DNA of 47,882 nucleotides from a virus, in IMG/VR virus record IMGVR_UViG_3300029585_000017; one strand, written 5' to 3'. Shown in pieces: positions 18,987-21,493 of the stretch. The notes under the pieces were generated by a model, which worked only from the letters and a program-made list of their open reading frames with translations, had not been told where the DNA came from and made no database searches. A program made the translations under genes and the position numbers. Positions within the stretch are counted from its first letter, which is position 1. Each line of letters starts with the position of its first letter.

Positions 18987-20944
18987 CAGTGGACCTCAAG
19001 CCAGTTCTTCCCGATTTCTGCTTGACCTGCCTGTGGACAGTGCATCATCTGGAAGTAGTCGGATACTTCTGAGAAAGCATCCTCAATTATTTGTGCAGCT
19101 TCTTCTGCATACTCCTCACGAATCTCTATCGTGAGTTCGTCATGGTAGAAACATACGATGCCGTAGTCTTCACCCCACTTAAAGCGTTGAGAGAGTTTCT
19201 TATACGCTAGGCAGTAGGTTGCCCCCATGTATATGGCTTCATCAGACTGAAGTACATATACCAAGATAGCATGTTCTGACTCAACAAAGATAGGACGACC
19301 ATCAAGACCAGTAACCCAACCATTATAATACTCCATCCTCCCCCACTTGTTCATTCGTTTCTTAGCGTTAGAACGCCATTCTTTCTCTAACCTTTCTACT
19401 AGTGCAGCCTGTGCTGGGAATGTTTCTGCTAAGCTCTGGCGAATAAGGTCGCCTTCCGTTTTCCCGCGCTCTACCATGTTGCCTAATTTATTGTCAGAGG
19501 CTCCGAACTTCCAAGCGAAGTTGAAGTTCTTCCCTTTCTTACGTCCAATAAGAGGAAGACCCAATGATTCAAGTACCTTGTTCACAGCTTTCATTGCCAG
19601 ACTGTGACCATCCGTCCCGATATCTTTGTTCCCGTGAAGAAGCATGTCAGTGAACTCTTGTACCCCAGCTCTCTGGGCAAGCATTCGGTCTTGACATGAT
19701 GCTGCGTCCGCCGATACGAGTACGAATCCATCTTTAGAAGTGAAGCACTTCCGCATTTGATTTCCGTAAAACGCACGGTCTCCCCGCTTACCTCCACCGG
19801 GGACATTTGCAATACCTGCATGTTTCATTCTCCATGTGTTAGCATACCCTGTCACTCTACTACCAATGCGCCCATCCTCTCGGATGTCACGTAACCAGCC
19901 TTCAATGTTACTGCGCCTATGCCTCACTTGAATACGCTTAGCTACTAGCTTGCCTACCTTACCGTTAACCCCCTTGAAAGGGTCTGCTTGGTTAAGCTTT
20001 GGAGAGGTACGCTCTCCTGTGGTATTAGAGATGTTCCATTCTTTAGGTTCCCAACCCTCTGCTAAGAGGAAATCAACAGCTTCGTTTCTGCTATTGAGGT
20101 CAGTGCGCCTAAAAGATACACGAGAGAAGCACCCACCAACAATGCGGGAAACAGGAACGCTCCCATCATCGCCACTGTCGGGATAAGCACTATCGAGCCA
20201 ACGTTGCACATGAACGTTGTACTTCCCTGACTTGAGGAAAGGTTTCTTGATGTATCCATACTCACCTTTATCTTTACTCTCACCTACCTCCACTATCATG
20301 GGGAGATAAGGTTCAACTGCCCTATCAATTCTATCCATCCAAGTGGTAAGCTGTCTTACACAGCGGCGCATATACGGTTCATCCGCGAGCCATCCATACT
20401 CTTCTTGGAGTTGCAGTATTTCAAACAGTTTAAAGGTGAGGTTATATGCATCAGACCAATTATTGTCCTTGCCTTCCTCATGTAATGCTAACATAATGAG
20501 GTATTGAATTTCAGTATCTTCCACACAGCGATGTAACATCTCTGGTGAAAACTGAGTCCAATCCTCGTGTTCAGGTTTTCCACGTCCTAACCTATAACCC
20601 CATGCTTCTACGCTATGAGGACCAGACTTCCCTTTCATACCATAAGGTCGTGGTCTTTCTGGTTGGTGCATCCGAGAGATGATTAGAGTATCCACCTTCT
20701 TACCAGTGTACTCATAGCTCCATAGCTTGCGTAAGAGTGGGAAGTCATATCCTATTCCATTATGGATAATGAGAACTTCACACTCGTCCATGAAATTCAT
20801 GCACTCTTGTTCCCAATTCGGTTGACCGTGGTGGAACGTGAACACTTCTTTAGTTTGTATGTCTTTGAAGACACCACACCATACAGTCGTTGCTTCATTC
20901 AAGAGACCATTAGCCTCAAAATCCGCTATGCATTTACGTGCCAT
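18986..20944 (-). CDS. Family A DNA polymerase with 3'-5' exonuclease (T7 gp5-like)
   Basis: ExoI IADFEANGL, ExoII HNGIGYDFPLL, motif A VSADAASCQDRMLA, motif B KGKNFNFAWKFG, motif C FYHDE. Confidence 0.9.
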   Translation of the reverse strand: MARKCIADFEANGLLNEATTVWCGVFKDIQTKEVFTFHHGQPNWEQECMNFMDECEVLIIHNGIGYDFPLLRKLWSYEYTGKKVDTLIISRMHQPERPRPYGMKGKSGPHSVEAWGYRLGRGKPEHEDWTQFSPEMLHRCVEDTEIQYLIMLALHEEGKDNNWSDAYNLTFKLFEILQLQEEYGWLADEPYMRRCVRQLTTWMDRIDRAVEPYLPMIVEVGESKDKGEYGYIKKPFLKSGKYNVHVQRWLDSAYPDSGDDGSVPVSRIVGGCFSRVSFRRTDLNSRNEAVDFLLAEGWEPKEWNISNTTGERTSPKLNQADPFKGVNGKVGKLVAKRIQVRHRRSNIEGWLRDIREDGRIGSRVTGYANTWRMKHAGIANVPGGGKRGDRAFYGNQMRKCFTSKDGFVLVSADAASCQDRMLAQRAGVQEFTDMLLHGNKDIGTDGHSLAMKAVNKVLESLGLPLIGRKKGKNFNFAWKFGASDNKLGNMVERGKTEGDLIRQSLAETFPAQAALVERLEKEWRSNAKKRMNKWGRMEYYNGWVTGLDGRPIFVESEHAILVYVLQSDEAIYMGATYCLAYKKLSQRFKWGEDYGIVCFYHDELTIEIREEYAEEAAQIIEDAFSEVSDYFQMMHCPQAGQAEIGKNWLEVH

Positions 20945-21239
20945 ATCTTTCTCTTAGTTTTTTACCTACTCGACTCAGAGTCTTTCGTACTGCTGCTGGA
21001 GTCATGCTTTCAATCTCAGCAATCTGTTCGTGTGTATGACCTACAGTGTAGTACATGTCACATATTCGAGCAGTACGCTCAGGTAGTGAAGACATGTATT
21101 CTCTTGCGTCTTTCAACAAGAGAACCTCATCAGCTAGTATGGGACTGATATGTTTACTATCATCGTACGTTACCGTAGCGAATCTCTTAGATAACACATC
21201 ACGTTCCCAACTATCTAGAACTAATCCTAGATGGCTCAT
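20934..21239 (-). CDS. Sigma-70-family region 4 (sigma4 HTH) protein, second half of a two-ORF sigma factor
   Basis: LPERTARICDMYYTVGHTHEQIAEIESMTPAAVRKTLSRVGKKLRE matches ECF-type region 4. Its ATG overlaps the upstream TGA (ATGA). Confidence 0.7.
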   Translation of the reverse strand: MSHLGLVLDSWERDVLSKRFATVTYDDSKHISPILADEVLLLKDAREYMSSLPERTARICDMYYTVGHTHEQIAEIESMTPAAVRKTLSRVGKKLRERYGT

Positions 21240-21493
21240 GAGGATTTCCCAACCATGCCTTGACGCTTCTCAGCGTTAATAATATCAATGCGTGCATTCG
21301 ATAGGATTCCATAGAACCAGTCATCAAATGGTTGCGTACTATCATAAGAGTTCTGCATTTCTAACGCATTGACACATGCTTGTTGGATGATGTCTTCTGC
21401 CATTTCAGGTGAGACATTACCACCTGACATAGACTTAACCCACTTCTTACGGTTCTCACGATAGGAAGCGTCTAGCTTAGATTTGAAATCCAT
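21236..21493 (-). CDS. Sigma-70-family region 2 (sigma2) protein, first half of a two-ORF sigma factor
   Basis: AEDIIQQACVNALE...PFDDWFYGILSNARIDIINAEKRQ matches region 2.1-2.4. AAGGA RBS. Confidence 0.7.
   Translation of the reverse strand: MDFKSKLDASYRENRKKWVKSMSGGNVSPEMAEDIIQQACVNALEMQNSYDSTQPFDDWFYGILSNARIDIINAEKRQGMVGKSS

Follow-up and report, generated by a model that had tools for sequence, protein, structure and literature searches.

Two small proteins of phage T4, gp55 and gp33, bind the host RNA polymerase (RNAP) at the sites of sigma2 (the beta' clamp helices) and sigma4 (the beta flap), respectively. In Bacillus subtilis, sigma2- and sigma4-like functions are carried by two small polypeptides of neighbouring genes, SigO and RsoA (YvrI-YvrHa); sigO precedes rsoA, and we know of no fused ancestor of this pair. 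In the paper that re-classified extracytoplasmic function (ECF) sigma factors, SigO-RsoA is cited as the accepted example of sigma2 and sigma4 residing on separate polypeptides (PMC7826278), and both proteins are needed at the target promoter (PMC7826278, PMC10028694). Phage ECFs were not captured by this re-classification (PMC7826278). When ECFs are cut in the linker by engineering, they lose activity, and inactive split inteins that merely hold the halves together do not rescue it (PMC7090010). Here we describe a locus in the IMG/VR virus record IMGVR_UViG_3300029585_000017 (47,882 nucleotides, analysed as a whole and referred to below as the window), where sigma2 and sigma4 are encoded by two overlapping open reading frames (ORFs), which probably represent a fissioned ECF-type (group 4) sigma factor working as two polypeptides.

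The window looks like a complete genome (~48 kb) of a Zobellviridae-type podovirus, a marine phage of the Vibrio type. Both ORFs are on the minus strand, between a primase/helicase gene (22183-23841) and a family A DNA polymerase gene (18986-20944) of the same orientation. The first (21236-21493, 85 aa) encodes the sigma2 protein and the second (20934-21239, 101 aa) the sigma4 protein; the end of the second ORF, stop codon included, coincides with the first 11 nt of the DNA polymerase gene. They meet in an ATGA at 21236..21239 (minus strand), where the sigma2 stop codon TGA (21238-21236) overlaps the sigma4 start codon ATG (21239-21237). Going upstream from this ATG, the sigma4 frame runs into a TGA after 10 codons, none of which could serve as an alternative start. 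The initial annotation of this locus had reported the overlap, the combined length of 186 aa (85 + 101) and the ten-codon limit, all of which were confirmed in the sequence; it had also assigned a sigma-70 region 2 and nothing else to the first ORF and a linker (~44 aa by our analysis) plus a region 4 helix-turn-helix (HTH) to the second, and both domain assignments are supported by profile matches above curated thresholds. A Shine-Dalgarno-like AAGGA (21501..21505, minus strand), read from the sequence, is located 7 nt upstream of the sigma2 ATG, and the AAGGA/AAAGGAGG upstream of sigma2 is retained in the aligned relatives. In PHROGs both ORFs fall into phage sigma families, and both match phrog_1740.

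The sigma2 protein (gene at 21236..21493, minus strand) is composed of a three-helix sigma-70 region 2 (residues 3-79) and a short tail (residues 80-85, MVGKSS) followed by the TGA. It matches the Pfam family Sigma70_r2 (PF04542) with 28.7 bits against a curated (GA) threshold of 24 (E 1.1e-6; residues 11-77, profile positions 5-70 of 71), and positions 8-73 of TIGR02937 (NCBIfam sigma70-ECF, 165 positions); the AEDxxQ and FxxWxxxIxxN motifs are conserved. The AlphaFold2 (AF2) model (pLDDT 86.5) has helices at residues 3-22, 29-45 and 56-79 and a disordered tail (80-85), and its best Foldseek matches are region 2 of Mycobacterium tuberculosis SigH and of E. coli sigmaE (TMq 0.72-0.77). As residue 76 aligns with residue 89 of B. 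subtilis SigW (alignment of the sequence to solved structures), the sigma2 protein stops right past the last sigma2 helix.

The N-terminal ~44 residues of the sigma4 protein (21108..21239, minus strand) correspond in the concatenated alignment to the sigma2/sigma4 linker, whereby its TVTYDD matches the VEYKxELD linker motif of single-chain relatives. The sigma4 domain proper (residues 45-101; 20934..21107, minus strand), with its HTH, is supported by Pfam, TIGR02937, AF2 and Foldseek. Residues 45-97 match Sigma70_r4_2 (PF08281; 32.2 bits, GA 25.7) and Sigma70_r4 (PF04545; 29.5 bits, GA 24.1), and the predicted -35 recognition helix reads ...MTPAAVRKTLSRVGKKLRERY. The AF2 model is confident at residues ~40-100 (helices 34-51, 54-66, 70-76 and 81-99), with the N-terminal ~35 residues at low confidence (pLDDT <50 at 1-8, 18-28 and 30-35; a weak helix at 10-20); the best Foldseek matches are sigma region 4 structures (TMt 0.70-0.77). 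Residues 1-20 (MSHLGLVLDSWERDVLSKRF) form a well conserved extension specific to the sub-clade of the window. Against TIGR02937 the sigma4 ORF matches positions 111-164, leaving ~37 linker positions unmatched, and each ORF alone scores below the whole-protein cut-off of 42.9 (26.3 bits for sigma2, 31.4 for sigma4). A region 2 domain and a region 4 HTH are thus present, and neither region 1.1 nor region 3 could be detected with Pfam or TIGR02937, the remainder being a short linker only. This is the layout of ECF (group 4) sigma factors, except that the two domains, which in an ECF share one polypeptide, are here encoded by two ORFs in different frames.

To place this arrangement among its relatives, we combined an exhaustive HMMER search (the 85-aa sigma2 protein against 1.84 billion representatives) with a tblastn search of the phage collection. 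A word-indexed protein search recovered merely 2 and 4 relatives, and related-locus scans of viral contigs and of metagenome contigs recovered none. The HMMER family has 121 representatives, almost all of 144-187 aa; the four short members closest to the query (P0007, P0008, P0013 and P0057; 85, 87, 97 and 94 aa) end in GG(M/T)xGRS(L/I), and therefore at the same break point as in the window. A sigma4-type ORF is present in 25 phage records of Zobellviridae. In all seven records inspected at the junction (1.264.O, PS32B-4, 468E53-1, 521E56-1, VPMCC5, T4S1-k141_776450 and the contig of P0007) a 258-nt ORF is followed, with a 4-nt overlap, by one of 255-312 nt. The contigs of three of the four short HMMER members show the same overlap ahead of a sigma4 ORF of 84-101 aa, and the overlap is likewise present in the metagenome contigs L011, L013 and L015. 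Without exception, the ATGA recurs in 10 more split relatives (L001-L006, L011, L013, L014 and L015). The split relatives span 36-70% protein identity and come from isolates and metagenomes of several laboratories. A single ORF of 159-167 aa occupies the same genomic position in Vibrio phage 1.253.O, in Pseudomonas phage PA11 and its 15 relatives, and in two oyster-metagenome phages. The comparison of orthologues proposed in the initial annotation (one ORF or two) was thus informative: close relatives have two ORFs, and single ORFs occur only in more distant ones. Some of the split records are annotated in GenBank as 'RNA polymerase sigma-70 region 2' and 'RNA polymerase sigma factor'.

These data bear directly on the most trivial explanation, namely that a single sigma gene contains a sequencing or assembly indel or is decaying into a pseudogene. 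In one genome, a 1-nt indel within a ~560-nt gene would indeed give such a picture, and two distant family members resemble sporadic disruptions (see below). The same break and the same ATGA, however, recur in isolates and metagenomes of different groups at 36-70% protein identity, both halves are under strong purifying selection, the split clade is monophyletic, and the break is a multi-codon insertion rather than a 1-nt indel. We therefore give this explanation next to no credence.

The anatomy of the break was deduced from the concatenated alignment. Single-chain relatives read ...GGM-x-VEYKxELD..., as compared with ...GGM-xGRSL-stop / Met-xxxx-VVEYKPELD... in the split forms; the break is an insertion of 9-30 aa straight after the conserved GGM, at the start of the sigma2/sigma4 linker. 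The insertion is minimal (9-10 residues) in T4S1_776450, L011 and L013, and reaches 26-30 residues in the sub-clade of the window and in VPMCC5. Given its position after GGM, the cut falls exactly where the linker begins, leaving the acidic linker on the sigma4 side. In a neighbour-joining (NJ) tree built from 159 sigma2 and sigma4 alignment columns with the insertion excluded, the split proteins are monophyletic in 300/300 bootstraps, with the single-chain forms as sister group and outgroups. The split is therefore a derived and conserved fission. A placement of 1.253.O inside the split clade, which would imply a re-fusion, appeared in an NJ tree of sigma2 only and was rejected, being found in 0/300 bootstraps of the concatenated tree. 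Both ORFs evolve under purifying selection (dN/dS 0.03-0.29 overall; pairwise values of 0.11-0.29 in sigma2 and 0.03-0.16 in sigma4).

The alignment and the tree together show that an ancestral single-chain phage sigma of ~160 aa, which in Zobellviridae is encoded between the genes for primase/helicase and DNA polymerase, was cut once, by way of a short insertion that carried the stop/start overlap. The first of the resulting genes encodes a complete sigma2 with a tail of 4-6 residues and the second the acidic linker with sigma4, and purifying selection has since maintained both throughout the clade.

Two distant family members, each represented by a single metagenome contig, have a disrupted linker of another kind: a frame change with a 20-nt overlap in L016 (781-1297) and an in-frame TAG in L017 (913-1401). 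These may be assembly errors or signs of recurrent fission in this linker. In VPMCC5, an extra ORF of 101 aa is inserted between the sigma4 and DNA polymerase genes (L005:2056-2361).

In a second explanation, the active sigma is a single chain of 186 aa, made through programmed -1 frameshifting or stop-codon slippage within the 10-codon window, and the separate products are by-products or regulators. Relative to sigma2, sigma4 is indeed encoded in the -1 frame, which all relatives keep open over the 9-15 codons preceding the ATG, and a -1 slip at the last sense codon would fuse both proteins exactly; the inactivity of engineered ECFs cut in the linker (PMC7090010) likewise speaks for a continuous chain. 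On the other side, the window and 10 relatives share neither a slippery X XXY YYZ heptamer nor a homopolymer run that might serve transcriptional slippage at the junction. The junction sequence itself differs by lineage (GGGAAATCCTCATGA, GGGCGTTCCCTATGA, GGGAGAAGCACATGA, GGTAGAAGCTTATGA, GGACGTAGCTTATGA and GGTCGCTCACTATGA), and hence there is no conserved re-pairing rule. The amino acids of the 0-frame tail (G-R/K-S-x) are conserved as far as the stop codon, while its Arg/Lys codons switch between CGT, AGA, CGC, CGG and AAA and its Ser codons between AGC, TCC, TCA and AGT. The retention of these residues across unrelated codon families implies that selection acts on a protein ending at the TGA. 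The sigma4-frame peptides upstream of the ATG are unrelated between relatives. The insertion also created a proper ATG, which a frameshift gene would not need and which is invariant in split relatives, and the ATGA overlap is a standard signature of termination-reinitiation. Programmed frameshifting is thus unlikely on these sequence features, and the fused 186-aa chain as the active form appears to us quite improbable. The sigma4 start is preceded by a good Shine-Dalgarno-like sequence in VPMCC5 and T4S1 (GGGAGA), at the one extreme, and by none in L015, at the other, a variability that would fit re-initiation by terminating ribosomes as the common mechanism. An intein, or a bypass of the T4 gene 60 type, was also considered and rejected, as the ORFs overlap with no intervening sequence. 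Of the two readings left open by the initial annotation, a genuine bipartite sigma as against an indel or a frameshift, the former is favored by the conserved ATGA layout and by selection; the indel is contradicted by conservation, and the frameshift is disfavored by the lack of a slippery site.

If both proteins are functional, they need not constitute one two-subunit sigma. The sigma2 protein might act alone in a gp55-like, -10-only recognition, or the linker-sigma4 protein might be a separate activator that binds the -35 element, or might compete with region 4 of host sigma-70 for the beta flap. The fission does physically uncouple the domains, and the sigma2-like protein of T4 is known to work without a sigma4 domain. 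In addition, in L014 the sigma2 ORF is followed through the ATGA by a Cys-rich ORF that is not sigma4-like. Nevertheless, in each relative that is readable through the junction both genes are adjacent, in the ancestral order and with the 4-nt overlap, as expected for obligate partners made in a fixed ratio; no lineage that has lost one of the halves was found among the relatives; and the candidate promoters described below hold a -35 and a -10 block at fixed spacing in phages with split and with single-chain sigmas alike. We consider independent functions doubtful, and a joint two-polypeptide sigma remains the preferred interpretation.

The L014 locus (Logan contig SRR27478758_2781833, positions 1072-1143) deserves a separate description: a sigma2 ORF ending in GRSIIS passes through ATGA into an ORF starting with MNCEHERGGWCYCDSGLSNDRNCR, and the contig ends after 24 codons of this Cys-rich second ORF. 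If it proves to be a gene inserted between the two halves, it would provide strong evidence for independent polypeptides.

Compared with SigO-RsoA, the phage pair follows the same principle of sigma2- and sigma4-like functions on two small polypeptides from neighbouring genes, and even the small-subunit size is similar (9 kDa for RsoA; 85 aa for the sigma2 protein). No specific relationship between the two systems was seen in profile matches, the best NCBIfam and Pfam matches being generic ECF ones (no direct sequence comparison was made). Unlike SigO-RsoA, the phage system is viral, belongs to a Gram-negative host, has a 4-nt translational overlap, and is a collinear fission (sigma2, then linker plus sigma4) with single-chain sister lineages still extant, which makes the fission event reconstructible.

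The likeness to T4 gp55 and gp33 is limited to the idea of two proteins at two sigma docking sites. Homology of the window proteins to gp55 or gp33 was not detectable. A DNA-binding HTH is missing from gp33 and a -35 element from T4 late promoters, whereas the sigma4 protein has an HTH and the candidate promoters a -35 block here; T4 also needs the sliding clamp as an activator, and nothing suggests so for the window phage. Of the two precedents invoked in the initial annotation, SigO-RsoA therefore holds as an instance of the same two-polypeptide principle, and T4 is at best a loose one, given that the second protein keeps a canonical sigma4 HTH.

A further counterpart is found in the single-chain, ECF-like sigmas of RNAP-less podoviruses (PA11 gp012, 1.253.O gp36 and phrog_1740; functionally also phiEco32 gp36). 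These are homologous (30-45% identity over sigma2), contain the GGM and VEYKxELD linker motifs as well, and are likewise encoded between primase/helicase and DNA polymerase; they share a presumed role in switching host RNAP (PMC9960094) and, in 1.253.O, a three-promoter layout. They differ in being one polypeptide of 159-167 aa, as opposed to 85 + 101 aa with 9-30 extra residues.

The engineered split ECFs (ECF16, ECF17 and ECF20) are likewise cut in the disordered sigma2/sigma4 linker (PMC7090010, PMC8044194), but are inactive unless split inteins re-ligate them covalently (PMC7090010). A naturally selected cut at the linker is consequently not trivial, as engineered ones lose function (PMC7090010). 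The natural halves presumably do work unligated, since they are under purifying selection and no intein is present.

A 31-nt element, TGTCAC-N9-GTTAT-N5-TATATA, occurs in exactly 3 copies in the window (0.04 expected), all intergenic and facing downstream genes. Candidate promoter P1 (23917..23947, minus strand) is located 76 nt upstream of the primase/helicase gene, with syntenic elements in relatives, and heads the replication module that contains both sigma genes. P2 (38137..38167, plus strand) lies upstream of the tail-fibre/structural gene block, and P3 (45592..45622, plus strand) is intergenic, upstream of the scaffold-like and major capsid genes. Relatives contain 2-4 elements of like geometry at syntenic places with a different upstream hexamer, and three 31-nt elements per genome compare with 0.04-0.2 expected; for example, the intergenic element homologous to P3 in 1.264.O, VPMCC5, T4S1_776450 and 1.253.O has a different -35 block. 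The -35 block tracks the predicted recognition helix of sigma4: TGTCAC in the window (helix ...AAVRKTLS...) and TGACAC in the single-chain 1.253.O (...NSVRSIIK...) go with (A/S)VR(K/S), and GAGGGK in 1.264.O (...KTVEGVLY...) and GTAGGG in both VPMCC5 (...KTVEKTLN...) and T4S1_776450 (...KTVEKTLT...) go with KTVE(G/K). The window is phylogenetically nearer to 1.264.O, yet has its hexamer type in common with 1.253.O. Since the single chain of 1.253.O is accompanied by the same promoter geometry, the split and the fused forms seem to do the same job.

Several smaller features adjoin these elements. A fourth one, GTAGGG-N20-TATAAA, is found in VPMCC5 (L018, 20356-20387) directly after the helicase gene and upstream of the sigma genes. 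Downstream of TATATA at two of the window sites (38167-38185 and 45622-45640) a conserved TAAATATAACTA(C/A)TA was observed. The P3 region is near-identical to that of 1.264.O for ~40 nt (AATATAACTAATAGTAATACCCTTTAC), which suggests a possible conserved transcript leader or initiation region.

Promoters of another type are found in the 1.07-kb divergent intergenic region, where they face the early genes: a perfect (12/12) sigma-70 consensus promoter, TTGACA-N18-TATAAT (37700-37729, minus strand), and a second one, TTGACA-N17-GATGAT with a TG (37853-37881, minus strand). Both are, by their sequence, likely early promoters of the host RNAP. With sigma-70 promoters in front of the early genes and non-sigma-70 elements in front of the replication and structural modules, this context supports (albeit does not prove) the proposal that the phage sigma would switch host RNAP to the later modules. 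No RNAP was found among the window ORFs of at least 500 aa, which are the DNA polymerase and the primase/helicase (by annotation of the homologues in relatives), a tail appendage, an internal virion protein, a tail fibre, a terminase and a portal protein (by PHROGs), and one further ORF of 619 aa with no assigned function. This is consistent with the statement of the initial annotation that the phage has no RNAP of its own, and agrees with the description of Zobellviridae as lacking RNAP, in which the sigma-switching phage phiEco32 is named as an analogue (PMC9960094).

From these data we infer a tentative scheme of RNAP assembly, in which both subunits would be jointly needed and the promoters assigned as above. 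Ribosomes terminating at the sigma2 TGA would re-initiate at the overlapping ATG, yielding roughly equimolar subunits. The sigma2 protein would bind host core RNAP at its beta' clamp helices, reading and melting the TATATA -10-like element, and the sigma4 protein at the beta flap, reading the phage-specific -35 block (TGTCAC in the window). In structures of ECF holoenzymes, the sigma2/4 linker passes along the active-centre cleft and the RNA exit channel, and a coupling of promoter escape to RNA extension has been ascribed to it (PMC6372665); because of this path, the free N-terminal linker of the sigma4 protein may be expected to occupy the RNA exit channel and the active-centre cleft, as it does in single-chain ECFs. 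In the temporal program, host sigma-70 would transcribe the early genes from the canonical promoters at ~37700-37880 (minus strand), and the two-piece sigma would then drive the three TGTCAC-N19-TATATA promoters of the replication module and the structural gene blocks. As the replication module includes the sigma genes themselves, a positive feedback would result.

Several considerations weigh against a two-polypeptide sigma acting at these promoters. A simple cut in the linker is not expected to work, given that engineered cut ECFs are inactive (PMC7090010). The correlation between the -35 block and the sigma4 helix comprises five genomes with two states. ECF promoters do not typically have a 19-nt spacer or an A+T-rich TATATA -10, and host sigma-70, together with a phage activator, might be what reads the elements.

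The more demanding proposition, that a natural ECF-type sigma is fully active as two unlinked polypeptides with the cut at the very start of the linker, we rate only slightly above even chances. If true, continuity of the linker would be dispensable once sigma2 has its GRSx tail and the sigma4 subunit its new N-terminal head. A free-ended linker could then move into and out of the RNA exit channel irrespective of sigma2, altering holoenzyme assembly and promoter escape, and the phage could mix, or separately control, the recognition of the -10 and -35 elements. A split clade beside sister phages with an intact sigma and the same promoter layout offers a natural test of the role of covalent linker continuity. 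A pair that works unligated would also provide a transcriptional AND gate, compact and orthogonal, for use in Gram-negative hosts, complementing SigO-RsoA, which is used in Bacillus. Finally, the RNAP-less Zobellviridae are provided with a concrete model of their temporal program and with candidate promoters whose -35 specificity appears to co-vary with the sigma4 helix. A full-text literature search found no paper describing a split sigma in Zobellviridae. Already known are the two ORFs as annotated in GenBank; what is new is their interpretation as a probable two-subunit ECF-type sigma that is viral, collinear and translationally coupled and whose origin can be reconstructed.

Another potential sigma gene of the window (17902-18573, minus strand; 223 aa) was examined and rejected. 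Its homologue, ORF30 of T4S1-k141_776450, is annotated as 'RNA polymerase sigma factor', but the window protein has no Pfam hit and matches only families of unknown function in PHROGs; the annotation of ORF30 therefore looks unsupported.

Upstream of the sigma2 start, between it and a DUF6847 gene (21884-22183), lies a non-coding element of ~280 nt (21512-21792). The element is more conserved than the flanking genes, with long blocks 90-100% identical to 1.264.O, PS32B and L014 (64-69% for the sigma genes). It can form a long-range closing stem of ~23 bp (AGAGAGACAGTAGGTCTGCG... / ...CGTAGATGCTGTCTCTCT) and several internal hairpins, with 10 compensatory pairs; its fold z-score is ~-2 on both strands, and no match for it was found in Rfam. 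The element may be a leader RNA, a small RNA or a DNA element such as an origin. The module of the DUF6847 gene and this element is absent from the split-sigma phages 468E53-1, VPMCC5 and T4S1, and is therefore not part of the split-sigma mechanism. Within the element, at 21554-21610, four (T/C)GGATGT(T/A) copies are spaced 15 nt apart, including three exact AACATCCGA (minus strand), with an adjacent inverted repeat ATCGGACTAT/ATAGTCGGAT; these repeats look like iterons or operators.

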